This document shows, piece by piece, positions 4,171 through 54,983 of a DNA stretch of 64,000 nt. Numbering within the stretch: position 1 is the stretch's first letter; each line of letters starts with the position of its first letter. The stretch is from Prorocentrum cordatum. Its lineage: Eukaryota. The position numbers were made by a program, and so were the translations under genes. The notes beneath the pieces were generated by a model. The model did not search any database and was not told the DNA's origin. It was given only the letters and a program-made list of their open reading frames with translations. The stretch is taken from the NCBI GenBank assembly GCA_963575745.1, contig CAUYUJ010000002.1, positions 1,798,001 through 1,862,000 of the forward strand, read 5' to 3'.

Positions 4171-8135
<3,965 letters not shown>

Positions 8136-24840: not shown

Positions 24841-25515
24841 TCCCGGCTGGGTGGGGAAAGAAAGCGTGGACCCGATGACCCCCCCCCCTCCCCCCCCTAC
24901 CCCGGCAGAGCCCCCCCGGCCCCCCCCAGCAGAGCTGAAGCTCAGGTTGTAGCTTTCTTAAACTCACACGCCGGATCGGCGGATTACTGAAGGGGGTCCT
25001 GTCCATCCCCGATAGAGGAGCCTGATCTGCGCGCGCTCGGCCCTGGAGGACAGCCCGCTCAAGTCTCAGAGGATCCTCAGCGAGTACTTCGCGAGCCCGG
25101 CCCCCGAGGACCGTCCGCGCGCGCTCGAGGCGGCGAGGCCCGCGCGCTGGCGCCACGACGGCGCGTCCTCGGCAGGCAGCAGCCTGCTCGGGGAGCAGAG
25201 AAGCCCGAGCGAGTGCCTGCAGCGCGTTGGCCTGGAGGGCGGCAGCCCGCCCGAGGCATCGGGCGTCGCGGAATGGGGGGCGATACCCAGACCTCCTCCT
25301 CCTCCTCTTCCTCCTCCTCCGCCTCCTCCTCCTCCTTCTCCTCCTCCTCCTCCTCCCCCTCCTCCTCCTCCTCCTCCTCCTCCTCCTCCTCCTCCTCCCT
25401 CCTCCTCCCCCGCCTCCCCCTCCTCCTCCTCCCCTCCTCCTCCTCCTCCTCCTCCTCCTCCTCTTCTGCCCCCTCCCCCTCCTCCCCTTCCTCCTCCTCC
25501 TCCTCCTCCTCCTCC

Positions 25516-25547
<32 letters not shown>

Positions 25548-25582
25548 CTCCTCCTCCTCCTCCTCCTCCTCCTCCTCCTCCC

Positions 25583-25604
25583 TCCGTAGTCATTTTGGCT
25601 CAAG
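25583..25604 (+). other. DinoSL spliced-leader copy at the 5' end of a retrotransposon
   Basis: TCCGTAGTCATTTTGGCTCAAG matches DCCGTAGCCATTTTGGCTCAAG at 21/22. It follows a (CCT)n tract directly. Confidence 0.93.
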
Positions 25605-28600
25605 ATGCAAAATTCCTCAGGGCAACAAGTGGATACCGCTAGTCCGCGGCGGGCAAGACCTCTTGAGGTCTGGCAGTGCTTGTGCATCGCACCCACGTTC
25701 GTGTCGGTGGGAAAGCGGAGGCGTTTCCCGTTCCTGCCTGCGCGAGCGTCTCAGATTCGCTAATGGGGGTCGCCGGCCAGAGCGCGCAGCAGGTTCTCCT
25801 CGATGGTTTCGATCCCGCGTCCACCTTCCCCTCGCAGTTTTCTGACGACGCCGCGAAGGGCAACCAGCGTGGGAAGGGTTCTGGTCCATCTCGTGCTGCT
25901 GATGCTGATGTTCCCCCTCCTGGCAAGCGTCGTGCCTTGCCGCCCGCCTCTGAGTGTCGCATGGTCCCGACGGGGCCGTTGAGGATGCCGAAGACGCTGA
26001 GTGGGCTGGAGTGTCAGATGTACACCCACGCAACATTGTGCGATCTGAATGGAGTGGTCTCAAGGAGTTTATGCAGGAAGAAGTGGGCAGGACTGTTGCC
26101 GCATCGGTTTCGGAGTCGAACAAAGCTGTTCTACAGGCGTTGGAAGCCGTCAGGATTCAACTCAATGGACAGGCGTCTTCCCTCGACCAGCAGGTGCAAG
26201 CCGCGATCCAGCCCTCGCTCGACGAGGCCGGGAAGCAGTTCCAGAAGCAGCTTGATGCACAGGCGTTGCGCCTGGACGAGCAGGATGAGAGGTTGGACAA
26301 GCACGGCGCGCAGCTGCAGGCGTTGCAGGGCGAGCTGGTCGAGTTCAGGAAGTTGCTAGCGGTTGCTGAGGAGCGGCCTGTCGCACTGGTTGCGGTGCCG
26401 TCTGGCTTCCCCCGCGACCCCGGCCACGCGATCGTCGTTGTCATGTCGCAGGTGCCGACCTCGCTTGCGGCTGTCAAAAAGTCAACGGATGAGCGGTTGC
26501 AGTCTCTGGCGTTTAAGTCGGAGGAGTACAAGATCGAGGTGGCGGGCCATCCGCCTAGCCGCCGATGCCTCATCAAGTTCGGCGGGCTGGTTGCGCCCGC
26601 GACTAGGAGAATGGCGTTTGGAAGGAGTTCTGGGCGGAGGTCGATGGGGCCCCTGCTTGCCGCCTCCACTTGGGCCCAGACAAAAACCCGCAGCAGGCCA
26701 AGCAAGATATCGCGCTTCGCAAGTGCAAGGACGCGCTTCAAGGCGCGCGCCGTGCTGGTTCAAAGATATTCCTGGATCGCGAGAGGGGGGGTGCTGTGCA
26801 TTGGCTGGGACAAGGTTTTACGTGTTAAAGTCGTCCATGGGGAGACCCCGCCGAAGTTGCGGTGGGTGGTCGAGGGCCTTCAGAAGCATGGGATTACGAA
26901 GGCGCAGGCTGTCGCGGCGACGAAGGTGCCCACGGACCCTCCCTCGGAGCCTCAGTGGTGCCTTCGATGTCGCCTCGGTCTTTCACTTCGGCATGTGGGA
27001 GCGCAGTGGGCCTCCGCCTTCACTGCGGTTTGCGACGTGGAACTGCTGTGCTCTTCTTCAGGCTGCAGGGGTGTAGGCTAGCCTGAAAAGGAACTACTCG
27101 GCGCGGCTTCGCCCACACGACGCGGTCATATCGCTGCAGGAGATCCGCCAGGACGAGCTGCAGTCGCGTGCCTTCATGAAGCAGATCCGCCCCGAGTCCG
27201 CGCAGATTTCGTGCTTCGCGGGCAGGGGGGGGGGGGGGGGGGCGGGCCGCATCAAGGGTGGGGCCGCAATTTTGCTTCCGAAGCTATCCATGGCAGATGG
27301 GGCTCTGACGGTAGTCTCGCATGATAGCCTCATACCTGGGCGAGCGCCGAAAGTGGATATCCAGAGGGGGGATGTCATGCTCACAGTCTTCAACATTCAC
27401 GATCACGGATTGAGTTAGGATGACATTCGTGGCGTGACCGGGCCCATCGGCTCTGCGCTGAAGGCCGCCGCTGACGACCCTGTGCGGAAGTTGTGTGTGG
27501 TCAACGGCGACTTCAATTTTGCTGCGGATGAGGCGCTCATCCTGCGCGCTCCTTCAGCTGCCATTTGGCGGTCTCGCCGTCGGCTCACGCTCTGGAGGAA
27601 GTTGCCGGCGCGCATGCTCGAGCTTGAGGGCGACGAGCCGACCCACTACGTCAGGGGCACCAATGAGTCGCCCAGCATCGACAGGGTCTTTTGCTCCCTC
27701 GCCAGCTGGCAGGCCTGCCAGATGCACATCACCTCGTCGACGGTCGAGTCGGCTGCCGCAGTTTCTGACCAAAAGACCCCGGATCACACTGCAGTGGTTG
27801 TCTCTTTCTTTACCCTCGCCCCTAAGCCCGCTGCCGAGCGCCCCGCCCCACGCGAGCTGCGTCGTGAGCGCGTCTTTCAGGTGCGCCTCGAGGGTCTCAT
27901 TTGTTCCCGTGACTGGGCTTCGATGTCTCCACCCTTTCGTCTTGAACATTGCAAGTTCCTTCGTCGCCAGGCTGGTCTTGACGCGCGTGATCGTCTCTTC
28001 CGCCAGCGACCCCACCACCCGCACACGCTGCTGCTATTTGCTCGGTCCCTGGCCCGCGTGGCACGGGGGCAGGACTGGCGCCTGGCGCGCCGTTTGCAGA
28101 GCTCCCATCCCGAGACCGATACGCGCGTCGTGATTGACGGCGCCAGTGCATCCTTGCGTCGCCCCCCTTCGTTTTAAGAACGGCCCTGTCGTGTCCAACG
28201 CGACGCGGCTGATGCCCTCCGCCGCGAGCTCCAAGCTAGACGTGGCAAGGAAGGGGATGTGCAGCAGATTCGTCTGCAGATCCGTGCGCTTGACGAGAAG
28301 GCGAGGTTGCGGTCCCCGATCGGCAGGCGTCTGTCTCTCTCGGGCGTGGTCGACTCTGCCTCGCACAGCGTCGTGACTGACCCGTCTGACCGCGTCGAGG
28401 CCCTTGGGAGGCACTGGGGCCCCGTCCTTGCCAAGAAGCCGTTTGCTGCTGCCGCTGCGCAGTCGCGTCTTCAGGGGCGCTTGTCGTCGATTGAGGATGT
28501 TATCACGCCGTCGCCGTCGTTGCGTTCGCTGAAGGAAGTGATCAGGAGAGCTCGCCACAGTGCTACGAGGGTGGATGGGTTGCCGCATGATGCCTGGGGG

Positions 28601-31350
28601 TGCAATGAGTTTGGGCTTCGCGTCCTCTTCGACGCTCTGGAGTGGGTGGTGACTGGGCAACGGTTCTTCCTGGCGTCTCATACTACTATTCAGGCCTTTC
28701 TACGCAAGGCCGTTACTGAGCACGAGCTGAGAGGCGGCGCATGCACACGAATTCCAGATAAGATACGAGTATTAGGCTTGAGGAACACGGATGTGAAGAT
28801 CACGTCGGCCGTCGTGAATCGCGCGTTGCGCCCTGTTGTGGCGCATGTCGCCCCTCGGGCCCAGCGTGGGTTTGTGCCTGGGCGTACTTTCGGGTTGCAT
28901 ATCCTGGAGGTTGATGCACATGTTCGGCAGCTGTCTGTGACATGTCCTCAGGGTCCTGGCCTGCCTCTCCTCTTCTCCCTTGACTTCGGCCAGGCCTTCC
29001 CCTCTCTGAACCAGGACTACATGCAAATGGTGCTGCAGATGTTGAAACTCCATGACGCCCTCCTCCTCTTCGTAAGCCCCCTGTGCGCCGCGATCGAGGG
29101 CGTCGTCGCTGTCGGCGGTGTGTTTCGGGTGATTCTCTGGTTTCTCAGTGGGGCCCTCCAGGGCTGCGGGCTCTCTGGGAGCCTCTGCGCGTTGAGTGCG
29201 GCGCCGTTCATCGATGACCTGGAGGTTTCGGTCGAAGTCCCTGGGCTTGGGCTGGTTCGGGCGTGCGCGGACGACATCGGCGGCTCGGTTCGATCGATCG
29301 CGGGGCTTCTGCAGGTCTCTCGCGACGCGCAGCTGGCTGAGGCTTTCGCCAACCTGGTCCTCAAGATCTAGAAATGCAAAGTGGTGCCCCTTGCTGGGCG
29401 CTTTACAGCTCCCTTGGCGGCCCGCGTGAAGGCTGCGATCTCGGAGGCTATCCCGTCTTGGGCTGATCTGGATGTAGTGTCGAAATTGCTCTACTTGGGC
29501 CTGTGGCTGGGCCCTGACGTTGGCCCCTGTGACTGCTGGACGGACCCTGCAGCCAAGCTTCGTCTGCGTGCACAGGCGATTGGCCGCGGCGCAACACCCT
29601 CCAGCGTCTCTGCCATCTTGTGCAACACCCGTGCGGTGGCCACTCTCTCTTACGTTGCGCAATTTGTCTGGCTGCCGCCCGCGCTCCTGGCGCTCGAGCT
29701 GCCGTCGCTGGCGCAGGCGCTTCGTGCGCCACTCGGCGCCCTCTTGCTGGAGTCCCGGGCGCAGCTGGACCTGTGGGGCGGGCCTCGCATTGCGCGCGCG
29801 GGGCACGTCGCCGTCGCCTCGCCGGTGCGCCCCGCTGCGTTCACCTCCCCCGAGCGCGCGCAGATCCTGGACTCGCTGGTTTCCTTTGTCCGCACGCACG
29901 ACGACTGGCGCACGCTGTGCACGCTTCGGCCTGGTCGTCTGCATCCGAGCTTCTGGCGCCCTGAGTCGTATGCGGAGACGTTGGCGCAGGCCGCTGCTGG
30001 GCAGGGCCCTCCTGGTCAGCCCTCGAACATGGCCCCCGTGGCGTGCGCGGCAGCCCGCGAGGAGTTGCTGGCCGCGGTGGACCGCCGCCCCCGCCCTCAG
30101 CGCGCTGCGCATCGAGCTCTTCGCGAGCTTGCTCGGGACGCTGCACCTCGAGCGGGCATCTTGGAGCTGAGACTACGAAAGCTGATTCCCTGACATCGCG
30201 CAGTGCTCGGGGGGATCGACTGGGACGCGATAGTTACTGTACTGAGGCGGTGTCCGACGTCGCGGGCGCGGGCTGCGATTCGGACTTGGGCTGGCGCTTG
30301 GCTCACCTCGCATCGCATCCTTCATGCGGGCGGCTGGCGGCTCTGCGCGCATGGCTGCACGGGCGCGCCCGACTCCGCTGCCCCAGGATGTTCGCTGCGG
30401 TGCGTCGGGCGCCGGTCAGATCTTGCCCTCTTTCCGTGCTACACCGCTGCTGCCTCCTGCCCCCGTCTATTGACAACGTTGCTGCAATGATGGCGGCATG
30501 CAGCATGTGCAGCACTACCCGCGTGATCGAGCAGTGGCCAGTGGACGAGAACCAGACCATCAGTTGCACTCTCGCGGGAGCACGGGCGACGCGGATGGTT
30601 TCGCCGCTGCGCCTCTCGCGCATGGAACGCGTCGCTCTCGAGGTGACGGACTTCGCGAGGAAGCGTCCATGCTCATCCTCCTCTTCTTCGTCGAGCACGT
30701 CCTGCTCGCGCGCGCCCTCGACGCCGCGTTCGAAGGGTTCGTCGAGTGAGTGGGCGGACCTGAGCTTCGACCCTGATGGTTGCGGTAGTGACTCCGACGG
30801 TTTTCGAGCGGTGCCGCGTATCTTGGCCACGCCTCCGCATCGAATCAGCGGAAGCCCGTGCTTGTCACCAGAGCTGGCGCCCTTTCCGACGGCGCGGCGC
30901 CGTCCGCGCCTGACGCGTGCATTGCCGCCCTCGAGCGCGTCGTCGGCCGCGTCGGGGACATGGCGGGGCCGCGAGTCCATGATACGTTCTCGTCTTTTTT
31001 TCATTGTTTTCTTCGTTGATGTCCTCTCCCTGTGCTGCGGGCTCGACTCAATCCGTTATGATTGGATCCTCGAGTGCGTCGATTTCCGCGCGCGCGAGCT
31101 CTTGCGCGCGCGACCGCCCGCGCAGCATCGCCTCAGCGCCTGTTTGTGGCAGTTTCAGCAAGCTCATTTTGTCAGCGGTGCCGAGGCCAGCCGTCGCTCT
31201 CCAGCGGCCGCTGTGCCCGTCTGTCCGATCTTCTCGCGTCTATGTCTCGGCCTCTGGCTGAATCTTCTCCACCCGTCCGTCTGTCCTGAGCGCTTCGACT
31301 GCTGCTGCCCATGCTGCTCCTCTCTCGCCCCCCACCCGCTCTGCGCGGAT
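25583..31350 (+). mobile_element. Near-full-length decayed non-LTR retrotransposon, family B copy 1 (coiled-coil ORF1, EN-RT ORF2); 3' end approximate
   Basis: ORF1 ~25762-26970 (LDAQALRLDEQDERLDKHGAQLQALQGEL). EN motifs FATWN, SLQEIR, GGAAILL, NGDFNF, SIDRVF, PDHTAV. RT motifs DGLP, RVLGLRNTDVKI, QRGFVPGR, SLDFGQAFPSL, GALQGCGLSG, ACADDI, LLYLG. C-terminal WAGAWLTSHR..CAHGC. Confidence 0.92.
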
Positions 31351-31445
31351 TGAAAGGCGCCGCCGCTCTCGGCGCCCCGCCCCCCGCCCGCGGGGGCAGG
31401 CTGGGCTGGCAGGTGATCATGACTGGGGCCCTCCCATACGCTCGC

Positions 31446-32380
31446 CACCTCCCTCATCCCCCCGCCCCCCCCCCCCCCACCCTTCCCCCCCCCCTCCTCC
31501 TCCTACTCCTCCTCTTCTCCTCTCTCCTCCTCCTTCCCCTCCTCCCCCTCCTCCTCTTCTCCCCCCCCCTCCTGCCTCGCCCCCTCCTCCTTCCCCCACT
31601 TCTCCTCCTCCTCCTCCTCCTCCTCATCCTCATCCTCATCCCCCTCCTCATCCTCCCTCTTTTGCTCCTCCCTCCTCCTCCTCCTCCTCCCCCCCCCCCT
31701 TCCCCCCCTCCTCCCCCCCCTGTCCCCCTTCTCCTCCTCCTCCTCCTCCCCTCCTCCTCTCCTCCTCCTTCTCCCCGCCCCTCCTCCCCTCCTGCCTCTC
31801 CTCCTTCTCCTCCTTCTCCTCCCTCCTCCGCCTCCGCCTCCTCCATCATCCTCCTCTTCCTCCTCCTCTCTCCTCCCTCCTCCTCCTCCCTCCTCCACCT
31901 CCTCCTCTCCGCCTCCCCTCCTCTTCCTCCCCCTCCCCCCCCATCCCCCCCTCCCTCCTCCCCTCCCCCTCCTGCTCCTCCCCCTCTCTTCTCCTCCTCC
32001 TCCTCCTCCTCCTCCTCCCCCCTCCTCCTCCTCCTCCTCCTCCTCTCCTCCTCCTCCTCCTCCTCCTCCTCCTCCTCTCCTCCTCCTCCGCCTCCTCCTC
32101 CCCCCCCCCCCCCCGCCCCATATTTCCTCCTCCCTCGCCCTCGTCACCTCGTCGTCGTCGCACTCCGCATCCTCTCTTCCCCGCCCCTCCCCCCCTTCTC
32201 CTCCTCCTCCTCCGCCTCCCCCTCCTCCTCCTCCTCCTCCTCCTCCTCCTCCTCCTCCTCCTCCTCCTCCTCCTCCCCTCCTCCCCTCCTCCTCCTCCTC
32301 CTCCTCCTCCCCCCCACCCCCCCCCATCCTCATCCCCTTTCCTTTCCTCTCCTCCGTTCCCCCCCCCACCCCCCCCCAGG
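31446..32380. repeat. Degenerate (CCT)n/poly-C tract; other CCT/GGA tracts at ~575-730, 1430-1740, 16705-16760, 22830-23170, 25293-25582, 42623-42715, 43953-44243, 57850-57985, 60223-60346, 63480-63690
   Basis: Seen directly in the sequence. Confidence 0.95.
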
Positions 32381-32429
32381 GGTCATCGGCGGCCCCCGCG
32401 GCGCCGCGGCACCGCGAGAGGGGGGTCAC

Positions 32430-35400
32430 CCTCCCCAGCCTGGCGCAGGCGTCGTCGACGGCGGCGGCCGCGGGCTCGACGGCTGCTGCAACTGGAGGTG
32501 GCTCACACCTCGCTCACAGCACATCACGGCCACAGCTCGTGGATGCCGACGCGGGGGCGAAATGGTGACAGCGAGAAGCCGATCGATCCTGGCTGGGGCT
32601 GCGTGGCTACTCGTCAATGCGGCTACGCGGGGAACTAGGCATCCAACCGGCGATGCCATCGCTGCGGCAGGGGCCGCGTGGACAAGCCCCCCCCCGATGG
32701 CCTGCCCGAGCGGCGCCCAGCTCGCCCCCCCGCGCCTCCGCGGCGCACTCGTCAGTCCAGCCGCCCCAGGGGGCAGGCCAAGGGCCGCGGGGGGGGCGAC
32801 GAGGAGCTTGCCGAGGAGCCCCCAGCTGCCGCCTCCGACGCTGTGGCCCGCGCCCGCAAGGCGCTCGGCGCGCCCCGCCGCCTTCGCCCGGAGGACGGCG
32901 CCCTCCTCGCGGCGGCCAAGACGGAGCTCCAGGAGGCAGAGGCGGCCGAGTTGGCTACCAGGACGCCAGACGACCTCTTTCGACGGGCCTTGGAGCGACA
33001 GTCCCAGTGGAGCCGCGGCGTCACAGAGCTTCGCGTGCAGGTGGCAGAGCTCAAAGAGCAGCTTGACGCCAAGACTGCTGAGCTCGAGGCCGCCGCAGCT
33101 GAGTTGGCCATCGTGGATTCTGGGGCGGCTACGGCGAGAGCAGCGGTTCCTGCGGCAGGGACTCGACCTGATGCGATCGCCAGCGGGGATTGCGATGTTG
33201 ATGACGCCGTTGCTCGCCCGGGGCGCGTCGTCAACAGCGCGACGGCGGTCTCTGCAGGGAACGAGGGCACCTACCTCGAGTCGCTCAGCAAGCACTACAA
33301 GGGGCCGCGCCTGACCATCGCGCGGCAGCGCCAGGGGGCGGCGACGCAGCCCGCGGCCCCGCGCGCAGCAGTCTCAGCAGCGCCCATGGCAGCATCGCCC
33401 GTCGCCCCAGATCCTTGGGGCGCCGCGACCCCCAGCGAGGATGGGGATCGGGAGACGACCGCAGGCAGCTACTTAGCTTGATACTGATCTTCATCTCGGT
33501 GCTCTGCCCTGTGCACGAGGGCCACCGGCTCGACATCGCGCGGCGCCAGCTCGAGCGACGGCAACGCCCTATGACAGCCGCCGCGCTCGGGCTGCGAGGA
33601 ACCGTGGTAATGCAGTTCTGGTTGGATGTGCTGACACGGGGTCACCGTCTGGAGTGTGCAACGTCACGGGAACGGGCACTTACACGCCTACTGCGACGAC
33701 AATGTTGGCCGAAGCTAGGGGGCACAATGTATGCGTTCCTCCTTCGGGTCCCGTCTCGCCGCTGGGCAGTTTTACTTTGCCGATGCGAGCAACAGGTCCT
33801 GGGCGCGCTTCTCAGCGCCAGCACCTTGCACGTCGCCGCAGGGTCGCCCGTGCGCGCGGCGTCGTCGACGGACGAGCCGACCTCCGCTTCGCGCGTTCGA
33901 GGTCCGCGAGGCCCCCCAAGCCCGCTGCGCGCACTGGCCAGGTCTGGTGCCCCTGCCGAAGGGGGTGGTCGATGCCGCCTCGCCCGGCGACGATGTTGCG
34001 AGGGGTGTGTAGGGCTGGGCAGCGCGCCGAGGCGAGCCAACCTTGCCCGCGCGCTCCCTGACGATTGCACGACCGATGATGATCAATGGAGTTGGATACG
34101 CCACCTCAGCACCTACTTGCGCCAGTGGGCGGGGGGCCAGATCGCCTGGAAGACCTCGTGGCCGATGGCGACTGGCTGTGGTGGTGCACTCATTACGCCG
34201 AGCTTCCCATATGTGAAGATGAGGCTCTCAGCGCCTGGGCTGCCGACCCCGCTCGTATACGTGCCCTTGCTGAGCACGCGCGCCTCTGCGCATCATTTGA
34301 GAGCGGGGGGGGGGCGGGGGGGGGGGGATCCGCCAGCGCATCATCCGTTGCTAGAAGATATGCGACCGCAGCCGCGCCAAGTGGCACGCGCTGCTGTCGA
34401 ATCGTCTGCGCCTTGCGCGTAACGCCCGCCTGGCCATCGCCATCGAGCAAGCGGGCCAAGCCGATGCCGACCTCCTAGTTAGTTAGGCGACGCGGCAGTT
34501 CGAGACGGCGCTTCAGATGATTGCCGTCGCCAGGGATTCATTCCGCCAGACGGGTCACCGCTACCGGCCGCTGGAGCTGCTGCGCCCACCGCGGGGGGTG
34601 TTCCCATGGACAGCGAGCAGGGTGGCCAGGACATGGATGCCGATGGCGCCGACGCGGAGACCACCAACCTGACGCAGGCAAAGGCTTCATCTACTGGGCT
34701 GCTGGCGGCGGAGCGCCATCGTCGCAGTCAGCGCCCCTTCCCGCGCATTGCGCGTGCGAAACCCAGCAGGATTTCGATTTCCCTGCGCCAGTGGCGACCA
34801 GGCGCTACGAAAGAGATCTGCAGATCGAGCCAGAACTCTGCTGGACGCGGCCCCCCTGGCGGCCAGTCGCCCAGGAAGCGAGCAGGCAAGCGGAGGCATG
34901 TGCTGAAGATGGCCTCATTCGACAGCTCCGGTTGGCCGCAGATGCAGGACCTCCTGGACCAGATGCGTCGCGTTCAGGCGGTATCAGGTCAAGGGCTACT
35001 CCTGCAAGGCCATCGTCGGATTCTCGCTGAAGAGTGGTGCCTGAAGCGAGGCTGGCAGGCCTTCATCTTCGATGCGCAGCTCAGTGATGACGGTAAGTCC
35101 CTTGGTGGAGTTGGGCTTTTCGTTCGGGGGCATATCAGCGCGGCGCCGTTGCAGGCGTTCGCTGCCGCGCACGAGCTTATCCCAGGGCGCAGTGTGGTCA
35201 TGATGATTCAGTATGGGATTCGTGGTGGCCTCATTGTTGGCTCAACGTACCTGCAGCAGGGGCCCCGCTTGAGCGGTGTCAACGTGGACTACCTCCGCAC
35301 CATTGACGAGCGCCTCAGCTACTACGCCACACCGTTTGTCATGGCAGGTGACTGGAACATGCCGCTAGAAGTTCTGCAGATGTCAGACTTTTCATTGAGG

Positions 35401-35610
35401 TTGCGGGCCACGCCAGTTGCTTCTGAGGAGGGCACCTACAAGGGCCCCGCCACAGCCAGCCACTCGACGTTGAACTACTGGCGCGGCCGATGGAAGGCCC
35501 CCCGTACGAGCAACCTTGAACATCCCCTTCTCGGCGCAACTGAGCCCGCGGATGCGTTCCCCCCCAGCCGAATATTGTGGAGACGCTTTTGGAGGACCGT
35601 CGAACCCTTA
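32430..35610 (+). mobile_element. Fragment of a non-LTR retrotransposon (coiled-coil ORF1-like region plus APE endonuclease), 3'-truncated
   Basis: Coiled coil in 32678-33481 (ELRVQVAELKEQLDAKTAELEAAAAEL). EN motifs LLLQGH, SLGGVGLFV, GSTYL, MAGDWN in 34990-35360. Confidence 0.7.
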
Positions 35611-38327
35611 GCTCATTTCTGCATAGTCTGATCGCAACCCAAGTTCCTGCCTGAGCTGACTCCAGCAAAATTCCATTTCCTCAGCCTAGATGCGACGGTG
35701 ACCCTCGCTGCCGGGTGGCTGCAAAGCGCCGGGCCTTTAGCCTGCGAGATGACCAGCAGCAGCTTCTCGAGCTGCAGGCACAGAAAATACACAGCCCGTG
35801 ATAAGGTAGTCTCTACATACTTCGTGCTGCCCGACGCCTGTGATGCGATTTCGTCTACCACATTGAACAGGGCAGCCGACCAATAGAGTTCTCTGGTAAG
35901 GCCCAAGGGGTCCATGAGCATCACACGTAGAAGAGTAGTAGCAAACCCACGCCCCGCAATGATCCCTTTGGAGGCAAGCACAGGGGCCCCAACCGCACCA
36001 CACACTTTGATAATCCTCCTCCCTCGGTAGAGCGACAGCAACAGGCGGAGCTTCATGATATTGAACTTGTGCTTGACGGCCGCAACGGCCCAGGTAATGA
36101 CAGACCTTCTCGCGGGCCTTCGCGGGGTCCACTAGGCACGAGCCTGAGCAGCCTCCAACGCTGACATGCTGCTCCACCGTCAAACTCTGCTCCCAGACTG
36201 CACGTTCACAGTTCTTGCCGTGGACGCCATGCAAATAATCGCGATTATTTTCACGCTCCCACCGCTTTATCTCGCCCCTTGACAGCTTAGAGAACACCCT
36301 GGTGGTAGTTGGTAGCAGAGCTATCGGGCGGAACCCTCCTTCAGGCTTGGCGAGCATCGCAAGGATGGTGGCGAGGAGACTGGCGGGGTACGTGCCTAGG
36401 TACTCCATCTTGGCCCACAAAGCTCCTAGAACCTCCAGGAGGCCATCCGAGGCCTTGTCCAGATCCCGCGGTCGAAGAGCGTCGACCCCACAAGCCGTGC
36501 GTTTCGGGGACTTCCTGATGGCCCCACGGATGTCACTGACCGGCTTCTCTTCAGAACACAACTCCTGCACCGAGACTCCCTGCTCAGCGGTCTGGGCCTG
36601 GATCTGGCGCGTCAGGTAATGGATTGGGCCAGGGAACTTCGAGGCTTCAGGGTGGGCCTCCCAGATCTCATTCCAGTACTTGGTAAGGCCATCAACTGAC
36701 TCCTGAGGCCCCAACGGAACAGCGAAGCCTCCAGACTTGATGGTGCTCAGCTCGGGCGGCGCCCAGCCAATGGGACTCTGAGAATATTTATGCGCCTTGC
36801 CGGCGCCTGCGGAAACAGCTTCCTGCACCCATTGGCGCCAGCGCTTGCTGCGCTCCGAGGTGAACTTGCGCTCGAGCACACGTGCAAACCCTTCAGCTTC
36901 CTCTCCCCACGCCTGCAACCGCTCGAGGGGCGCGTGAAGCACGCTGCCAAAAGATGGCACCCACTGCTGCCAGGTACTGTCTTCGCGCAGCTGCTTAGGT
37001 CCCCGCCCGACCGCTTTCAGGAGCCCCAGAAGGCCCTTCTTTTTGATATGCACCAGCTCCGAGAAACGCTCCGAAATCCGACGCCACCCTCTGCTCTCAG
37101 GACTCCCGACGGGACGCCGACCACCTGAAGTTCTGACAGCAGAGATTTTGAAAATAGCAGGCTGCTCAGCTCTGCCGAAATATTTTGACTGGTCCAACAC
37201 ACCGTGATCGGCCCCAAGCTCGCGCCCGAGCGATTCCACAAAGGCTCTGTAACAAACACCCAATGAATCACGACCCCCGACCGATCTGACAGATTCAAGC
37301 AGATCCCCATAGTCCTGCGGTGCTGGCATGGGCCCTATCACGGCTTCCTGCGGGAACATCCTCGGCGGGCGCAGCGACTGGGCAAGGACGTTGAGCGGCT
37401 CGCCGCGGAACTTGACCACCACAGGCCAGTGCGGCTTCACTGAAGCCTTCCTACTGATCGCACAAGAGTGGACACTGCCTGCCAAGCCCGCAGACACCAC
37501 AGAGTAATCGATGGTTCTCCAAACCTTGGCCGTGGACTTACAGGCGTAGGTCGGTGGTTTGACAATCTGACCCCCGAGACGCCCAGGCCATCCCATGTTC
37601 TGGAGAACGTCAGGAGACACATTCCAGTCGCCTCCTACAAAGAACGAACAACCCCAAGGGTGTAACTGCTCGCCGACCCGACTGAGAATTTGGCACCCCG
37701 TTGGGCCCAGCGGGTCTTGTTCAGGCAGGTAGATGGACCCGAGGATGAAGCCCCCAGGCACAGACGCGTTGATCCACATCAGCTGTTGTCGGCGTGGATG
37801 CGGCAAACTCTCGGGGTCCGTCGGCGGCAAGCCCAGGCCAACGAACTCCCTGCGCGCCACCGTCGCGCCTCCCGAGAGACCTCCTGCACTGGTGACCCCG
37901 GACGGGTGGAACTTAGCCTGCCAGCCTAACTTCTTAACCTGAGATTCGCACTCGGCGCGGTCAGACGGGTCAACAGTTAGCTCTTGAAGCATTACGATGT
38001 GACTCGACGCTTCCCCTTGGAGAAACTGCTTCCCTGACGACCATGCTGTTGTATTACAGGTTTCGAGACAGAACAATTCCCCCTGGCACGACCCTGCAGA
38101 TTTCTTAGCATTCTGCCCAGGTTGGGCAGCTCGGTCCCTCCGAATCCGCCGGGGCCCCGCCAGAGGCCAGGCGCTAGGGGGAGGGGGGGGGAAGGGGCAG
38201 GCAGCACAGGGGGGGTTCGAGCTAGGCGGGGGCGGGGGCCGAACCAGGCGCCAGAAAGAATGCGCCAGGCGGCCTCTCGAGGCCCGCCGCCGCATCACCC
38301 CGCCAGCTGGCGGGGCAAGGCAGGCTG

Positions 38328-39518
38328 CTACCCACCAGGCGTCCTGCCCTGCACCTCCGCTGCCGCCCCTGTGGCGCTCGGGGCGCCTCCAGCACCCCCT
38401 CCAGCACCTCCCCCACCTCCCTTGCCGCCCAAAGCCTCGGTGGCCTTGGCGCGCACATCGACCTTAGGCGAGCTGGCGGTGGCGGCAGTGGCTCCGCCAC
38501 CGCCTGCGGCACGGCCTGTGCCTGCCTGGGCGTAAGATCCAGCCGCAGCAGCAGCTGGGGGGGGCCCGCCAGCAGGCGGCGGAGCCGCGATGGGCTCGCC
38601 CTCGGCGTTGCCGCTCTCGCCCTTCCGCTTCTTCTGCAGCCGCTGGACGTGCTCGGAGTGCTCCTGTCGCAGCTTCTCGGCCGTCTCTTTGGCGGTGCCG
38701 AAGAGCTTCTTGGCCACTTCTTGCACCCCCTGCCACAGCTGCTCCTTCCTGGCAGCTGTGTCCTTCTTATCCGTCTCGGTGAACTCATAGATGTCGGCAT
38801 GGCCGAAGAAGTCGTCGCAGCCGTCGAGGTCTATGCACGACACGTCCCCTGCGAGCAGCTGGTCCAACGATATCTTCGTCGTCCCCGCGGGCTTGTCACT
38901 GTGCGCCTGGCTGTGCATGGCGCTGAGCAAGCCCCTGTATTCGTCGTCCGCTTCACTGAGCTTCGTCTGCAACATCTGGACCTCTGCCTCTTGATCAGAG
39001 ACTCCCTGGCGCAACCGCCCCAGCATGTCGATCGCCCCGTCCATCATCCTCTCGAGCTGCTCGACCTGGGCGCGCGCGCGGCGTGCCCGTACCTGGAGCG
39101 GAGGCTCCTGGGGCTGCTGCGCTTCCTTCTTTTTGAGTGCCAACAACTTCTCATACTTGGTGACGGGCCCTTTGTCGCCTGTCTTCTTGCACAAGGAGAT
39201 GGGCTGGTCGATCTCGTCGATCGCGAGCTGTGTGTCCCCGTTGCCGAGGCCAGGCGGTGGTTGTAGCCCGACTGAACGAGGCCTTGTGCCCCCTGCGGCT
39301 TCGACCTGACACTCGCCTGCATCGCTCGGCGGGAACGCCCCAGGAGACCCGGCAGTGAAGCAGTGCCACATGTTCCAGCCGTGCTTCTTGCAGCCACAGT
39401 GCTCGCACCTCCACCGACGTAGGGGCCCCTTCGAGCCACTTCGCTTGGCACCCGTGCGGTCATCTGCCCACGATACAGTCTCCTGGCGCCTTCGTGAGCC
39501 GGCATCTCCCCACGCCAT
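38328..39518 (-). CDS. ORF1 of family C retrotransposon: RanBP2-like Cys finger plus coiled coil
   Basis: Open from ATG 39518 (MAWGDAG...). Contains WRCEHCGCKKHGWNMWHC and a long heptad region (QVEQLERMMDGAIDMLGRLRQGVSDQEAEVQMLQTKLSE). The last finger cysteine is missing. Confidence 0.7.
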   Translation of the reverse strand: MAWGDAGSRRRQETVSWADDRTGAKRSGSKGPLRRWRCEHCGCKKHGWNMWHCFTAGSPGAFPPSDAGECQVEAAGGTRPRSVGLQPPPGLGNGDTQLAIDEIDQPISLCKKTGDKGPVTKYEKLLALKKKEAQQPQEPPLQVRARRARAQVEQLERMMDGAIDMLGRLRQGVSDQEAEVQMLQTKLSEADDEYRGLLSAMHSQAHSDKPAGTTKISLDQLLAGDVSCIDLDGCDDFFGHADIYEFTETDKKDTAARKEQLWQGVQEVAKKLFGTAKETAEKLRQEHSEHVQRLQKKRKGESGNAEGEPIAAPPPAGGPPPAAAAAGSYAQAGTGRAAGGGGATAATASSPKVDVRAKATEALGGKGGGGGAGGGAGGAPSATGAAAEVQGRTPGG

Positions 39519-39676
39519 GAAGGAGCGCGGAACTTGGGAGTGGGAGCAGGAACGCACAGAGAAACAAAACAGTGAGGACCCTCGCTTTGGGCAGGGCCGC
39601 TGATCGAGGGTCGCGAGGGTCTCCTTGACCAGCTCGAGCCCCAACCCCAGGGAAATCGAAGGCCCCGGGCAATGGC

Positions 39677-39710
39677 CTTGAGCCAAATGGCTTGCGCCAG
39701 TGGCTACGGA
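39677..39710 (-). other. Tandem DinoSL relics
   Basis: Minus strand reads TCCGTAGCCACTGGCGCAAG-CCATTTGGCTCAAG-(GCCATTG): a degenerate full SL followed by a relic beginning at CCATTT. Confidence 0.88.
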
Positions 39711-39756
39711 CCTCTTTCCTCCTCCTCCCCCTCCGTCTCCTCCTCCTCCTCCCCCT

Positions 39757-42622: not shown

Positions 42623-43998
42623 CTCCTCCTCCTCCTCCTCCTCCTCCTCCTCTTCCTCCTCCTCCTCCTCCTCCTCCTCCTCCTCCTCCTCCTCCTCCTC
42701 CTCCTCCTCCCCCTCCCCTCGAACCACAAAAATATTACGACAGGAGGTTGCTCGCTGTGTTCGGCCTCTGGGGGCCCTTGCCAGGCCTCGGGCCGTCAGA
42801 GACCGACTCGGGGCGGAATGCCGGTCCCGGGGACGGGGTCGAGACCCCTGGGGGTCGACGTTCTGCAAAATCAGGGCGTCGGGGGCAGCGAGGGCTGCAG
42901 AAAAGGCGCCCTCGATGGGCTCCCAGAGGGACCCTTCGGGGCCCCAAAGGGGGCCTTTCGGGCCCGAGGAGTGCACCCTCCTCCCCCCCATTGATCGCCG
43001 ATCGCCCCCTCCCCAGCAAGCGACGCTCAAGAGGCGCCGAAGACGTCGCGCTGGCGCCCCACGCGCACGGCCTCGGAGGACAGCGACCGCCTGCTCGAGG
43101 CGCAGGCGAACCTGAACGAGTACCTCGCGCGCGCGGCGCGGGAGGGCGGCGGCCATGCCGTCGCGGGGCGGAGCTCGCGCCAGCGCCCTGGCCGCTCGGC
43201 CTCGAGGCCGAGTCGGGCCGGACGACAGGGGCAGGATGAGGAGGGGGGTGGGGGGGGGCGAAACCTGCTGCACGCAGCTGGTGTCCGTCCCGCCGCGGGG
43301 CGCATTCCCTGAGATCCTGGCGACTGTTTTTTCGAGCCGAGAGTTGTCGCCCGGTTTCGGGCCCGGGGACCCTCACAGATCGATCCGGCTCGAAAAATGA
43401 AGCAGAAAGATGGGGTCCAGGATTCTGGTCGTGATTTCTCACGATGTCGCAATTTGTTCTGAGACGTCGGATCTCAGGTTTCCTCGATGCATGGGCGCCT
43501 CCGGGCGCCAGGAGGCCCCAGGAAGACCAGCTGCGTGAGCTGATGCTCCACCCTGCCCTCTGCGATCCTACCCCCCCAGACAGGCGACGTCCTGATTTGT
43601 GCAATACAGCGGCCCTGGAAGTACCTCTAGCCTTTCCCCGGGACCGGCGTTTCGTCCCGAGTCGTTTTCTGGCGGTCCCGAGGCCTGGCGAGGGCCCGCC
43701 GAGGACAAAATCGGTCAAAGACCTCCCGCCTTATTTTTGTTACGACGCGACCTTGTCTGGGCCTTCGTCCCCCCCGATCGAGGGAGGGCGACCTGGGCAG
43801 CGGGCGCCGCGCCCTCGCGGCCGCGGGCGGCGGCACCCCGCCCGCGGCGCCGGGCGGCGCGCGCTGGCGCCCCGGAGCCCGCGCGGCCTCGGAGCCTGGG
43901 CGCCCGCCCGAGGTGCTCCAGGCCTCCCAGATGGGGAGGGCTCACGACGGTCTCCTCCTCCTCCTCCTCCTCCGCCTCCGCCTCCGTTTCCGCCTCCG

Positions 43999-44029
<31 letters not shown>

Positions 44030-44317
44030 CTCCTCCTCCTCCTCCTCCTCTCTCCTCCTCCGCCTCCGTTTCCGCCTCCGCCTCCTTCCTCTTCCTCCTC
44101 CTCCTCCTCCTCCTCCTCCTCCTCTCCTTCTCCTCCTCCTCCGCCTCCGCCTCCGTTTCCGCCTCCGCCTCTCTTCCTCCTCCTCCTCCTCCTCCTCCTC
44201 CTCCTCCTCCTCCTCCTCCTCCTTCTCCTCCTCCTTCCTCCTCGTGGGACGGCTCAAGGCACCCATCCAGGGATGGGAAGGCTCACGACGGTCTCCTGCG
44301 AGGTCTGGAGCAGCGCT

Positions 44318-44636
44318 AGGCCTCCTAGATGAGTCCGAGTAGATGGGGTCGGAGGATCGCGCCGCATCGCCTATGCATCGGCGCTGCATCGGCGATGCGG
44401 CTCGATGTGAAGCTTGCGTCTCTCTACGCCGACGTCGCGGATGCATCGCTGGCGTCGCCAGTGCATCGCCAATGCGTCGGCGATGCATCGGCGATGCGGC
44501 TCGATGTGGAGCTTGCTTCTCTCCCTGCCGACGTCGCCAGTGCATCTCGCCGATGCCTCGGTGATGCATCGGCGATGCATCGGCGGTGCGGCGAGATCCT
44601 CCGACCCCGTCTGCTCCGACCCTATCCGGGAAGCCT
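44318..44636. mobile_element. Palindromic MITE-like family P (ATGCATCGGCG-rich core); other copies at 7128-7344 and 57995-58416, partials at 57300-57366 and 59415-59450
   Basis: ~50-bp TIR AGGCCTCCTAGATGAGTCCGAGTAGATGGGGTCGGAGGATCGCGCCGCA with its complement at the right end. The interior is iterated CGATGCATCG palindromes. Confidence 0.75.
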
Positions 44637-45199
44637 CCAGAGGTGCGGAGCCCCGGCGGGCGCGGCTCGCCCACGGGCCAGGGGTGCGTCCACGACCCGT
44701 GCGAGCAGCTGCGCAGGGACCCGTCCTCTCCAGGCTGGGGGGGGGCTCGTCGCGGACGAAGCCCTGACCCAGACATGATCGCGCCGCTAAAAAAAACAGG
44801 ATGGGAGGTTTTTGACCATATTCGGCCTCGGGTGGCCCTCTCCAGGCCTCGAGACCGTCAAAAAACGACTCAGGATGAAGAACCGGTCCCGTGGAAAGGG
44901 TCGGGACTTCCAGGGACCCCGCGTGAAAAATTCAGGACGTCGCGGCGGTCTCGCCCGGTTTCGGGCCCTGGTCCCCCCACAGATCAATGCGGCTCGAGAA
45001 ATGACGCAGGAAGACGGGGTCCAGGGCTCCAGTGGTGATTTTTGAGAGAGCGTGATCAACCGCCGCTGTACTGTGGACTACTCCCCCCTTATTCCTCTGG
45101 AGCCAGGGGGTCCCCCCAACCCCCCCTCCGAAAATCCCGCCCCCCCTGCTCGACGCCCCCCCCTCCTTCCTTCCTTCCCCCCAGCAAAACCCCCTCTCG

Positions 45200-45237
45200 T
45201 CCGTAGACATTTTGGTTCAAGCGCATTCTGGCTTAGG
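45200..45237 (+). other. DinoSL copy plus degenerate second relic
   Basis: TCCGTAGACATTTTGGTTCAAG (20/22) at 45200-45221, followed by GCATTCTGGCTTAGG (11/15 to CCATTTTGGCTCAAG). Confidence 0.88.
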
Positions 45238-48200
45238 TTTTCCACCTGGTCAGTCTCAACCATTCGTGTGCTCGGTTGAGCGCCGCCCGCGAGGCGGTGA
45301 AATCAAGGTACCATCATTCCAACGCCAGCGCCATGGTGCCCCCTCCGCCTGTTCCTCCCGCTGGTGTTCCTGGCGGCGCGGGGTGGGCAGTCCCCTCTGG
45401 GCAACCCGACGGCACGGGCTGGTCTGCAGGTCAAGGGAGCAAGAGCTGGACGCCATGGCACTGGCACCAGTACCAGCGTGGCCCACCGTGGCGTTGCACA
45501 TCATGTGGTTGCAAGAAGAACAAGGCCAGCTGGCGGTTCTGCAAGCAGCGCAAGACCCCACGACCTCACCTTGAAGCCCAACCCAACAGCCTTTTGGTCG
45601 CAGGCGGAGTTTGGGCTTAAGGCCAAGGAGGTCATCAGCCAGCTGGACAGCCACTTCCTCTTCGTGCTGGACCTCACTTCATGGCTCAGCAGCCAATGGT
45701 AGTTGAGCAGACGGAACCGACCATTGCGGAGTTCGAGCAGCTCGTTCGTTTACTCGAGAATTGCGGGGGCGTGCAGGGGGGCAGCCAAGCAGAAGGAGGC
45801 CTTCGCCACCCGCAAGAAAGCTATGGAAGTGGAGGCGCCCCTCAGTCAGCAAGTCAACGGAGCCTTTTCAAGATCTTCGGATCTGCAGGGACCGCTGTGA
45901 CAAGGCGTGCTCTCCTTATGAACGGTTGGCTGAGGAGCTCTCTAGACATCAATCTAAGCTACGTGAATGCTCGGAAGCTTTGGCTCTTGCAGAACAGAAG
46001 CATCTGCACTTGGTCGCCAAGCTCAACGCCTCGGTTTGCAAGAAGCCCAGCAGGGTCGAGATCAAGGGCGCCCTGGAGTGTAACTACCAGGACATACCAA
46101 TCAGCGTTGATCCATTGCTCGGCCCCACCTCTGCATACTATGAGTTTTCGCAGCAGGAAAGAGATGACATCGACAACAGAGTTGCCAAGCTCAAGGAAGC
46201 CTTTCAGCAGTCTATCAGGGACCTCTTCGGCGGCATGGCTGGGCACTTCAAACAATTCCAGGCGCAGCATGCTCAGGAGGTCAAGCGCCTGGCGGGCAAA
46301 AGTCGCCGGTGAGGGCGAACAGCCACCAGCCGACGGTCCTGCTGATGAGCAGAAGGCGGAGTCCCCCGAGGGCATTACCGGCGGCGCAGCGGCGCCCCAG
46401 GCTGCCCAGCAGCCTGCAGCTCAGGCGCCTGCCGCCCTTGCAGCCGCCTGCTCCAGGTGCTGGTTCGGGGGCTCCGCCTACGGCCTGGACAGGGCCCTTG
46501 GAGGTTTTGCGGGGCCCGCGGTGGACGCGTCCTCGGCCGCGAACTCGGGCGTCGACGACGCTGCTGGCAGGCCGCGTCGGTACCAGGGCAGGTCGTCGAA
46601 GGCCAAGCAGCGCACGAAACAAGGCTAAGGGCCGCACTGCGCGTCTAGCGAGGCTTCGACCCACCATTGGTGGGCAGCGGCGCAAGAATTGTTTCTCGGC
46701 TGGCCCAGCCGCGTACGGTTGCGACATTTCGGTATTTCGGATTTTGAACACCTGCAGCTGCGGCGGCTTGCAGGTCAGGTTATGAAGCCGCCGGCGCAAG
46801 GAAGGAGCTTGACCGCGCTCCTCCTGCGCCTCGGCGACCCCGCTTGGATCGCCGCCGTGGCCCCGATCGCGAGATGGGCCAAGGAAGTCTGGATCGCGCA
46901 CCGCAGGCTTGCTACCTTTCTCCACCTCGTTCGCCACGCTTCGTTCGGCTTGGAACGCCGTGTTCTCCAGGGGCCGTGGATAGTGGAGGTCCGTTTCGGG
47001 CCCGATCAGCGCGATGAGGAAGAATCTCGTGGTCCATCCCCTCCTTCACTGTGCTCCGCAATGATCGCGGCATAGATATTCGCGCGACGGAAGTCTCGGC
47101 TTCCATGGTTAGGTCCTTTTTGAAGAGGGCGGCCACTAAAACGCTCGAGTGGGATCTCGGGGCCAGGCTCAATGTGGGCCGTGCCTGTGGTGACGGTATC
47201 TGGTCTTGGCTTCGTAGCAGCAAGATGACTCCGTTCGAGAAGGGGTTCATCCGATCGTTGTTCTGCCATGCGATCTATACCCGATCTCGCGCTCGAGGGT
47301 CAGGGTGCAAGATCTCGACCACTTGCGATATGTGTGGAGAAGCCGACGACACACCTAGGCACAGACTATGGGAATGTTCTGCCTGCGAGGAGGCTCGCGC
47401 CTCCCTCATCCCTTCTAGGGTGCGCGAATGGGCTGAGCAAGCCGACGATGTTCTAGCTTCCTTTCCTTGGGTTGTCGGGCATCCAGATGAACAAAAAATC
47501 TTCAGCTTATGTATTTCGATGGAATCGTTGCCGGGTTGTGCCCAGGCGTCGAGCACCCGGACTTCGAAACCTCGTTTTCTGGTGAACTGTTCGTGGCCGG
47601 GTCCTGCTTCAACCGTGTCATCCCTGAGTTGTCCCGAGCGGGCGGGGCTGCCACGCTGCTGGGTCGCCGGACAAACGAGGAGGTGATTCGCATCAGGGGT
47701 CCTGTCTGGCCCCCCTATTCCCAAACCCTTCAAAGCGCAGAGTATGACGCCGTCGCTGCAGCCGCTCGGCATCTCAGTGGGCTCTCCACGATTTTCAGTG
47801 AGTGTTTAAACGTGTGTGATTATGTGAGAATGTACCGGGCGAACCAGACAATTATGGCTGCTGGCTGCGTTCAATTCATTTGTCACAACCTTCTCAAAAC
47901 CAACATGCAGAAGGTTAAAGCGCACCTATGTGGATGCAACCACAGATTCGGATGACAAGTTTAAGCGATTGGGGAACAACCTAGTCGACGTTTCTGCCAA
48001 AGTTGCCGCCCGCTTTCACCTTCAGCCTTGCCCGCTCGTTAGGCAGGCTGGATCAGAAGATTGCTGTCTCGCGCGCGGGGTTGGTGTTTTGGCAGCAAAG
48101 TTGTTGCCCCTTTGGCCGCCCCTGCGGCCAGGAGAGGGAGTTGAGCGTGAGAAACCGCCTGCGGCGCCCCGTGCCGACCTCGCCCCGCACCGCTGGACTC

Positions 48201-48624
48201 GCCTCTCGAGATTCTGGCGTTGTGATGGTTGTTGTAAGGTCTCCCGCTCCGACAGTCTTCCGCTGCCTGGTCATTGTCGGGGCCTACAGAAGCTAGACCC
48301 TGATGTGTTGAGCAGGCTCCAGCACCGAGTCATAAACCTTGAGTGCTCAGATGGCGTTTCTTTGGTGGTGTGTTTAAAATGCACGGCCTACTCTGGGCAC
48401 GGTAAGATGCGCAACTTTGCGCGCAATTGTCTCGGTCTCCCCAGAAGCGCGGGAGCCAGATTCGCTTGGAAGCAGATTTCCCAGGGCTTTCACCCGAAAT
48501 TCCCAGGAGTCACTGTCCAGGTCGGGCCTTGGTCACATGTTACCTGAGGTAACCGACCAGGGGAAGCCGTATTCCCTCGCTGCGGCTTTTGTTTTTTTTC
48601 AAATGTGAAAGGCCTCGCGGAGGG
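45200..48624 (+). mobile_element. Internally deleted non-LTR retrotransposon, family C copy 2 (SL, ORF1, deletion of most EN/RT, Zn finger, RNase H, C-terminal Cys/His motif)
   Basis: ORF1 from ATG 45333 with WRCTSCGCKKNKASWRFC. CDMCGEADDTPRHRLWEC at ~47323. RNase H-like LFVAGSC, SQTLQSAEY, FSECLNV, KVKAH, GNNLVDVSAK (47570-48005). C-terminal WRCDGC..H..CLKC..C..GFHP. Candidate TSD at 45181 and 48625. Confidence 0.85.
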
Positions 48625-48744
48625 CCAGCAAAACCCTCTTCCCCCTAAACCCCCCCCCCCCCCAGAAAACCGGGGGGGTGGGGCGCTACCGGTTCGGACC
48701 CCCCCCCATTCGCCGGCGGCCGCAAACGATTCCTGGGCCCCAAC

Positions 48745-51876: not shown

Positions 51877-51907
<31 letters not shown>

Positions 51908-51987
51908 GGGACACCATCATCATCACCATCATCAACATCATCATCGCCAACATCATCAACATCATCATCAACATCATCATCATCATG

Positions 51988-52031
<44 letters not shown>

Positions 52032-52120
52032 GATCGGGACACCGACGGGACACCAGCGGGACACCGGCGGGACACCGCGCGCCACCGGCCCCCGAGCGGG
52101 ACACCGGCGGGACACCGGGG
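50790..52120. repeat. Compound simple repeat: (CTCACTATCGAT)n, then degenerate (CAT)n punctuated by CGGGACAC
   Basis: Seen directly in the sequence. Confidence 0.9.
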
Positions 52121-54680: not shown

Positions 54681-54983
54681 GCCTCCCAAGTAGCTTACAC
54701 ATCAAGTTGATTGTCCATACAAGTTTCGGCCAACTCCTCGTTTCCATTGATACAAATGGGTTGGGTACGTCACAGGATTTCGTGGTGTTACGCCGTGTTT
54801 TTCACGCACTGATTTTTTGTTTTGCGCAGCCCGCCCACACCGCGGCCGCCAGACCCCAGCGCGCGTGACACAGCCTGGAAAAGGCCTCGGGTTGGCTCCT
54901 CGGGTTGGCTCCGTGGTCTGTCCGCGGGGCGTCGGTCCGACCTGCTGTTTGTATGATTACAACAATGCGTTTTTGATCGATCC

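Follow-up and report, generated by a model that had tools for sequence, protein, structure and literature searches.

Dinoflagellate spliced leaders at the heads of LINE copies in Prorocentrum cordatum suggest retro-copying of trans-spliced element RNA

In a 64,000-nucleotide stretch of the Prorocentrum cordatum genome (assembly GCA_963575745.1, contig CAUYUJ010000002.1, positions 1,798,001 to 1,862,000; hereafter the window), we found three retrotransposon copies that each start with the dinoflagellate spliced leader (DinoSL, or SL), the 22-nt exon trans-spliced onto nuclear mRNAs. Judged from their sequence, these copies, called B, C1, and C2, are dead non-long-terminal-repeat (non-LTR) retrotransposons, or long interspersed nuclear elements (LINEs), of two divergent families. 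Their organization lends good support to a reading in which the SL would be the retro-copied 5' end of a trans-spliced LINE RNA, used again for splicing at its internal AG. A first-pass annotation of the window had proposed this interpretation, and it was strengthened by a target-site duplication around C2 and by the absence of an SL-RNA intron behind the SLs. A fourth SL relic and a LINE 'family A', both part of the same proposal, were not confirmed.

We scanned both strands of the window (128 kb in total) with the 21-nt DinoSL core CCGTAGCCATTTTGGCTCAAG, allowing up to three mismatches. Two matches were obtained, at 25584-25604 (forward strand, one mismatch) and at 45201-45221 (forward strand, two mismatches), while each of 100 shuffles gave none. 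At up to five edits, the sole extra site was 39709-39691 on the reverse strand, and a scan of both strands with the 15-nt relic, which starts directly after the SL-internal AG, returned the same three loci and no others. With the preceding T counted, B agrees with DinoSL at 21/22 positions and C2 at 20/22. Each of the three SL-like sites lies 96 to 158 nt 5' of a LINE open reading frame 1 (ORF1) on the same strand, the ATG being at 25763 in B (158 nt past the SL), at 39518 in C1 (158 nt past the relic), and at 45333 in C2 (96 nt past the relic), and same-strand LINE coding sequence follows all three. SL scans, direct reading, and LINE profile maps thus bear out what the first-pass annotation had claimed, namely, that DinoSLs at 25583 (+), 39710 (-), and 45200 (+) head non-LTR elements, with a second relic in C2, a tandem SL/relic in C1, and an ORF1 ATG shortly after each.

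The LINE identity of the copies was established with family profiles. A word-indexed homologue search with C1 ORF2 (908 aa) gave only one match, and a full HMMER search was used instead; it returned 2589 relatives at E ≤ 1e-3 and 101 at E ≤ 1e-30, and the long or best of these carry Pfam RVT_1 and Exo_endo_phos. Profile C (length 1435) was built from 21 C1 ORF2 relatives. The relatives of the B reverse transcriptase (RT; 28178-29368) are all named P. cordatum (10/10, 47 to 55% identity); eight carry PF00078, one (P0155) carries PF03372, and from them profile B (length 1382) was built. Profile B aligned to element B over 26032-30696 (positions 219-1315 of 1382, covering ORF1, the endonuclease at 526-762, and the RT). 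Profile C matched C1 ORF2 at 38148-35619 on the reverse strand (positions 3-819 of 1435: 3-669 and, after a frameshift near 36080, 663-819). For both profiles, the best match among solved structures was human LINE-1 ORF2p (4e-11 and 5e-9), and profile C also matched R2, RNase H, and an APE-type exonuclease (exodeoxyribonuclease). Pfam alone gave only weak matches in the window, to RVT_1 in B and to Exo_endo_phos in C1. The coiled-coil-like sequence of ORF1 and its CxxCGCKK finger were seen by eye, and no Pfam family matched them. In B and C1, the SL is followed by ORF1, endonuclease, and RT in one contiguous stretch. C1 and C2 were grouped by the shared ORF2 profile C and a common ORF1 motif, WRCxxCGCKK, a grouping limited by ORF1 identity of only 20.6% and by ORF2 parts that do not overlap. 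A BLASTN search of the window against itself, swamped by CCT/GGA repeats, found no DNA-level similarity between elements. A further B-like RT, truncated at its 5' end, was found by profile B at 61357-62108. The features of the three copies are as follows.

25286..25582, forward: (CCT)n tract directly adjoining the 5' end of B and ending one base before the SL; last 40 nt 100% pyrimidine
25583..25604, forward: DNA-encoded DinoSL of B, TCCGTAGTCATTTTGGCTCAAG (T-CCGTAGTCATTTTGGCTCAAG), 21/22
25605..25763, forward: 5' leader of B, with a 52-codon upstream ORF (uORF)
25763..26925, forward: ORF1 of B, putative coiled-coil type, frameshifted; profile B positions 219-525 at 26032-26925
27095..30696, forward: ORF2 of B, with APE-type endonuclease (27095-27889), RT (28418-30124), and C-terminal part
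30697..31444, forward: 3' region of B, extending to the downstream CT-rich tract, without poly(A)
31445..32377, forward: CT-rich/(CCT)n tract of 0.9 kb between the 3' end of B and a further element, D
35619..38295, reverse: ORF2 of C1, with endonuclease and the N-terminal RT half; truncated at about 35619, facing D tail to tail
38328..39518, reverse: ORF1 of C1, intact, 396 aa, with putative zinc finger WRCEHCGCKK and putative coiled coil
39677..39710, reverse: head of C1, with a 20-nt decayed SL at 39710-39691 and, behind it, the relic CCATTTGGCTCAAG at 39690-39677
45181..45195, forward: 5' copy of the C2 target-site duplication, CCAGCAAAACCCCCT, 15 bp
45200..45236, forward: head of C2, SL T-CCGTAGACATTTTGGTTCAAG (20/22, 45200-45221) followed by the decayed relic CGCATTCTGGCTTAG (45222-45236)
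45333..46625, forward: ORF1 of C2, with putative finger WRCTSCGCKK and in-frame stop at 45618; continues directly into ORF2-like sequence
46728..48499, forward: ORF2 remnant of C2, with RT C terminus, RNase H, and tail (profile C 870-1418), in four frame pieces
48500..48624, forward: 3' untranslated region (UTR) of C2, without poly(A)
48625..48639, forward: 3' copy of the C2 target-site duplication, CCAGCAAAACCCTCT, 14/15

A target-site duplication, a feature that the first-pass annotation had suggested looking for next to the SL, was found at C2, where 15 bp are duplicated outside the SL, in unrelated sequence. The insert spans about 45196-45200 to 48624, with the SL first and no poly(A) at the end. 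Since the duplication brackets everything from the SL through the 3' UTR, the SL is the 5' tip of the insert. The 12-mer core of the duplication occurs in the window at those two positions only, even at one mismatch (0.38 expected by chance), and a blind repeat search returned the duplication as its top direct repeat. The same search found no LTRs or long direct or inverted terminal repeats at C2. In a local-alignment control, the C-rich flank allowed 125 of 2000 random windows to reach such a score, and the evidence for the duplication is therefore the exact 12-mer count. Element B is bracketed on both sides by the same (CCT)n microsatellite, in which no duplication can be resolved; judged from this arrangement, B may have inserted into one repeat array.

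The heads of C1 and C2 hold more than one SL unit. In C1, a first SL unit that has lost its T-run is followed by a relic with 14/15 bases, which opens with the CC directly after the SL-internal AG (CCGTAG|CC), and the C2 relic is in the same register. From these tandems, at least one splicing event in the C lineage must have joined a new SL to the AG within an earlier, DNA-encoded SL, and each SL-plus-relic head marks two or more rounds of splicing and copying. There is no clear relic after the SL of B.

The uORF of B starts with an ATG immediately past the SL, and its TAA overlaps the ATG of ORF1 (TAATG; 25605-25765), a layout known from termination-reinitiation sites. The overlap may be due to chance.

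The other elements of the first-pass proposal fared differently. The supposed fourth relic, at 9593/9597, matches at only 10/12 bases. The window holds eight matches of this quality, whereas 100 block shuffles gave 2.6 on average and 9 at most, which leaves the site within the range of chance. For 'family A' (9.9 to 14.9 kb), which had been taken for a LINE, there was no LINE profile, Pfam RT/endonuclease, or solved-RT match: profiles B and C, Pfam at E ≤ 1, the PDB, and a homologue search all failed to reveal an RT or endonuclease, and the sole relative in the homologue search was one uncharacterized protein. A separate relic-like sequence, CCATTAGGCTCAAG at 22529-22543, agrees with the relic at 13/15 positions and lacks the 5' part of an SL upstream; about 0.4 such sites would be expected by chance by our estimate, and it was not counted.

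How could an SL come to stand at the tip of a LINE? We propose that the LINE pre-mRNA would be trans-spliced like other dinoflagellate nuclear mRNAs, so that the RNA intermediate gains an SL. Target-primed reverse transcription would then run to the capped 5' end, making the 22-nt SL the first 22 bases of the new copy. When this copy is transcribed again from upstream, a fresh SL could be joined at the AG that the older, DNA-encoded SL contains (CCGTAG|CC...). The 15-nt relic would stay behind the fresh SL, and the next copy would inherit both. Only 7 nt separate the acceptor AG from the start of the element, so that a branch site and a pyrimidine tract for this splice should reside in flanking DNA, and the precursor RNA would start outside the element. 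The element could therefore dispense with a promoter of its own, trans-splicing restoring an exact, capped 5' end in each cycle. Such a promoter-free life cycle, dependent on trans-splicing, would be a reasonable reading of the arrangement of the copies. In the 40 nt upstream of the SL, the pyrimidine share is 100% for B, 82.5% for C2, and 2.5% for C1.

As a small substitute for a genome-wide enrichment test, we scanned a collection of environmental metagenomes for the exact SL and obtained at least 126 loci with at least 141 sites. By simple rules, the sites among the matches listed fell into 30 SL-RNA genes, 40 sites with AT-rich upstream sequence (many of them giant-virus cassettes), and 71 'other' sites. 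The six-frame ORFs of the 126 listed loci (3397 in all) were searched with profiles B and C. Profile B matched in L037 (4e-28), L059 (1e-6), and L008 (5e-4), in each case through its ORF1 part, on the same strand and 230 to 500 nt downstream of the SL. In these three loci, the SL is preceded by non-SL genomic DNA, and in L008 and L059 it is followed by a relic. The outcome thus agreed with LINEs that would be headed by an SL. The C-type ORF1s (C1, C2, and D) and their finger motif had no match in the 126 listed loci. Among the matches listed, the non-LINE content behind SLs included an ER (endoplasmic reticulum)-retention receptor, a scramblase, an EF-hand protein, an HMG box, a 2OG (2-oxoglutarate) oxygenase, a virus capsid, and unknown ORFs. 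Across 1.29 Mb of SL-bearing viral contigs, profile B had no match, and one weak match to an RNase H region was seen.

Some of these results weigh against an origin of the copies from trans-spliced LINE RNA. All three SL-headed copies are defective: B ORF2 is broken by in-frame stops at 28175 and 29369 and by frameshifts, C1 has lost its 3' end, and C2 is internally deleted, its endonuclease and N-terminal RT being missing. The purine-rich 5' flank of C1 (2.5% pyrimidine) is a poor setting for reuse of the AG, and the SL and relic scans found no recognizable SL at the C-type element D, which has an ORF1 and an endonuclease. Among the metagenome matches listed, 34 non-SL-gene sites had 900 nt or more of downstream sequence, and only three of these showed a LINE ORF1, one of them marginal; profile C matched none of the 3397 ORFs, and most SL-headed copies were host genes or unknown ORFs. 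Finally, a 2019 preprint (10.1101/783902) describes RT genes and DinoSL-relic genes as having no functional overlap in two Symbiodinium genomes. On balance, we still regard it as likely that B, C1, and C2 arose by reverse transcription of trans-spliced LINE RNA, with the SL reused at its AG.

Several other explanations of the SL heads have to be weighed. The first-pass annotation had raised the question of whether the SLs are parts of SL-RNA genes struck by site-specific elements of the SLACS/CZAR/NeSL kind, which exist in other trans-splicing organisms. In the 30 environmental SL-RNA genes among the matches listed, the SL runs into GTA..., and a hairpin and a T-run come after it. The profile made from these 30 genes aligned only over model positions 2-31 in B, 2-39 in C2, and 6-23 in C1. 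These alignments cover the 22-nt exon and, at B and C2, a few adjoining or relic bases as well; at none of the three window sites did they extend to the conserved hairpin and T-run (about model positions 40-60). The SL-RNA intron, hairpin, and T-run are thus absent after all three SLs. Moreover, the C2 duplication is made up of unrelated sequence beyond the SL, the endonuclease is APE-type and not restriction-like, and an Rfam scan of the window for described families found none at gathering score, be it an SL gene array, a 5S gene, or a self-cleaving ribozyme (a tRNA scan was likewise empty). Insertion into SL-RNA genes thus has a negligible probability. Alternatively, the RT itself could have gained the SL by switching templates, either onto SL RNA or onto a different RNA that bears the leader; LINE RTs can indeed jump templates at RNA 5' ends, as in U6/L1 chimeras. 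Such a jump should have copied the SL-RNA intron too, whereas only the 22-nt exon is present, joined as by splicing, and the relic boundary falls at the AG, which makes this route improbable.

The SLs could also stand next to LINE fragments by coincidence, or head host retrogenes that happen to have such fragments as neighbors; host genes make up most of the SL-headed retrocopies among the metagenome matches listed. In the window, however, three of three SL sites head LINE units, B and C1 have their coding regions in one stretch after the SL, and the C2 duplication encloses the SL through the RT remnant; we consider a coincidence very improbable, if slightly less so than insertion into SL-RNA genes. 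The most serious competitor accepts copying from trans-spliced RNA and holds that the DNA-encoded SL acts as a portable promoter through TTT(T/G), so that read-through transcription is not needed. This role has been proposed for the DinoSL relics of retrogenes (PMC5585692 and PMC6050394). B and C2 have preserved TTTTGG, and the relic of C1 still shows TTTGG. On the other hand, a transcript starting at or after the relic cannot be spliced at the AG of that relic, as the tandems in C1, C2, L008, and L059 require, and the T-run is lost in the first C1 unit. We give the portable promoter a minor, though real, chance.

One base distinguishes the window copies from the environmental genes: the base before CCGTAG is A in 30/30 of the environmental SL-RNA genes among the matches listed and T in all three window copies. 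The T would fit a lineage-specific first base of the SL.

With each jump, a LINE has to rebuild its 5' end and secure its transcription anew, for which internal promoters and the R2 ribozyme are the known solutions. If our reading is correct, SL trans-splicing by the host would be a third solution, which would account for the tolerance and spread of LINEs in the promoter-poor genomes of dinoflagellates. R2 carries a self-cleaving ribozyme at its 5' end and is co-transcribed with host RNA, RNA processing defining the 5' end of the element. A functional analogy is possible in that co-transcription with host RNA would again be followed by processing that sets the 5' end. Unlike in R2, the processing would be done by the host trans-spliceosome, with a cap added, and the Rfam scan of the window found no ribozyme family. 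SLACS, CZAR, and NeSL-1 are non-LTR elements that insert into SL-RNA genes by means of a restriction-like endonuclease. They resemble the window elements in being non-LTR elements tied to the spliced leader in trans-splicing organisms and differ from them in that the window elements have an APE-type endonuclease, bear no more of the SL gene than its exon, placed at the 5' end of the element, and reside in unrelated sequence or in microsatellites. For B, C1, and C2, a SLACS/NeSL-type insertion into SL genes is refuted by the absence of the intron, the APE-type endonuclease, and the C2 duplication.

Dinoflagellates are said to recycle their mRNAs: Slamovits and Keeling reportedly spoke in 2008 of a 'recycling of processed cDNAs' with regard to DinoSL-relic retrogenes. 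Like those retrogenes, the window copies show a full SL and then relics cut at the internal AG, from repeated trans-splicing and retroposition. Unlike them, the tagged unit here is an autonomous-type LINE (ORF1, endonuclease, and RT) with a target-site duplication; since the tagged unit is the LINE itself, the cycle would be the element's own replication and not a by-product. Our data thus extend the known mRNA recycling to LINEs themselves. They also bear on a question left open in the literature, namely, which RT machinery makes the thousands of DinoSL-tagged retrogenes. SL-headed LINEs with duplications and repeated cycles indicate LINE target-primed reverse transcription over Ty1/copia as the maker of retrogenes, and judging from these sequence features, LINE machinery probably drives dinoflagellate mRNA recycling. 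A broader scenario is conceivable, though we hold it only tentatively and consider it somewhat less likely than its negation: dinoflagellate LINEs may have abandoned internal promoters and ride on host read-through, the trans-spliceosome freeing, capping, and rebuilding their 5' end at the AG of their own leader in each cycle, and the same machinery, seemingly favoring tandem-repeat DNA, may be the engine of massive retrogene recycling.

Song et al. (2017, PMC5585692) reported an enrichment of the Gene Ontology term 'RNA-dependent DNA replication' among DinoSL-relic genes, so that RT genes were already in that set, and proposed the TTT(T/G) of the SL as a promoter that is carried along. A 2018 review (PMC6050394) tentatively named LTR elements as the engine of retroposition, leaning to Ty1/copia, and the 2019 preprint (10.1101/783902) treated retroposition and retrotransposition as independent. 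In Schistosoma mansoni, Boroni et al. (2018, PMC5832876) found six genome-encoded SL exons merged to transposable elements; they suggested 'trans-spliced retro-transcribed elements' and also allowed for an assembly artifact. That case differs from ours in phylum and in SL, and no duplication or relic evidence is given in the portion consulted. The trypanosomatid elements L1Tc/ingi (PMC1874656) are likewise LINEs in organisms whose mRNAs are trans-spliced; with the internal promoter Pr77 and unspliced transcripts, they take the contrary route. In Symbiodinium, SymbioLINE-Dnmt (de Mendoza et al., 2018, PMC5890265) shows target-site duplications and conserved UTRs and lacks a poly(A) tail. It thus resembles the window elements as a dinoflagellate LINE with target-site duplications and without poly(A), and differs in its DNMT, which is absent from ORF1 in the window; 'spliced leader' and 'dinoSL' have no occurrences in the accessible text of that paper. 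A full-text literature search, covering passages of articles, found no explicit statement that dinoflagellate LINEs start with DinoSL, and the accessible text of the P. cordatum genome paper holds nothing on SL-headed LINEs.

SL-headed retrocopies often adjoin tandem repeats at their 5' junction, as seen for B, C1, and the metagenome loci L054, L059, L116, L066, L070, L019, and L005. A short (GGA)n tract (39721-39765) precedes the head of C1. Among the matches listed, a perfect microsatellite stands before the SL at 3 of 97 non-SL-gene sites with at least 32 nt upstream, compared with 0.25% of background positions, and at none of 28 SL-RNA genes. Several further metagenome contigs start inside a microsatellite just before the SL. 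The retroposition machinery may prefer such repeats as targets. Three SL-headed lake insertions (L037:1336-1854, L006:1-144, and L044:1-201) lie inside arrays of the 21-bp palindromic satellite GGACCCCGGGGTCCTTTAAAA, with the SL beginning a few bases past a TTTAAAAGG unit; one of these insertions is a LINE ORF1.

In many giant-virus contig copies, the exact DinoSL follows very AT-rich, TTTTTAAATATAATTTTTA-like sequence (L002, L003, L017, L018, L047, L061 to L063, and most loci from L127 onward). In L074, a capsid protein of nucleocytoplasmic large DNA viruses (NCLDV) is encoded downstream of the SL.

Element D lies between B and C1.

32639..35481, forward: element D, C-type, with putative coiled-coil ORF1 (32639-33478) bearing a putative CxxCGRGR finger and endonuclease fragment (34882-35481, profile C 9-198); 3'-truncated

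D on the forward strand and C1 on the reverse strand, both truncated at their 3' ends, meet tail to tail within about 140 bp (35481-35619). The junction points to a misassembly, or else to two inverted C-type copies brought together by deletion or rearrangement.

The remainder of the window is rich in other repeats. A CCCCACCACTGT-like array at 48738-49449 starts about 100 bp past the 3' copy of the C2 duplication, and two further tandem arrays lie at 50790-52057 and at 53048-54683, the latter with self-matches offset by about 102 bp at 83 to 93% identity. A family of short interspersed repeats, 73 to 88% identical and present in both orientations (7144-7345, 20324-20510, 43574-43759, 44318-44943, and 58028-58426), often adjoins CT-rich tracts.

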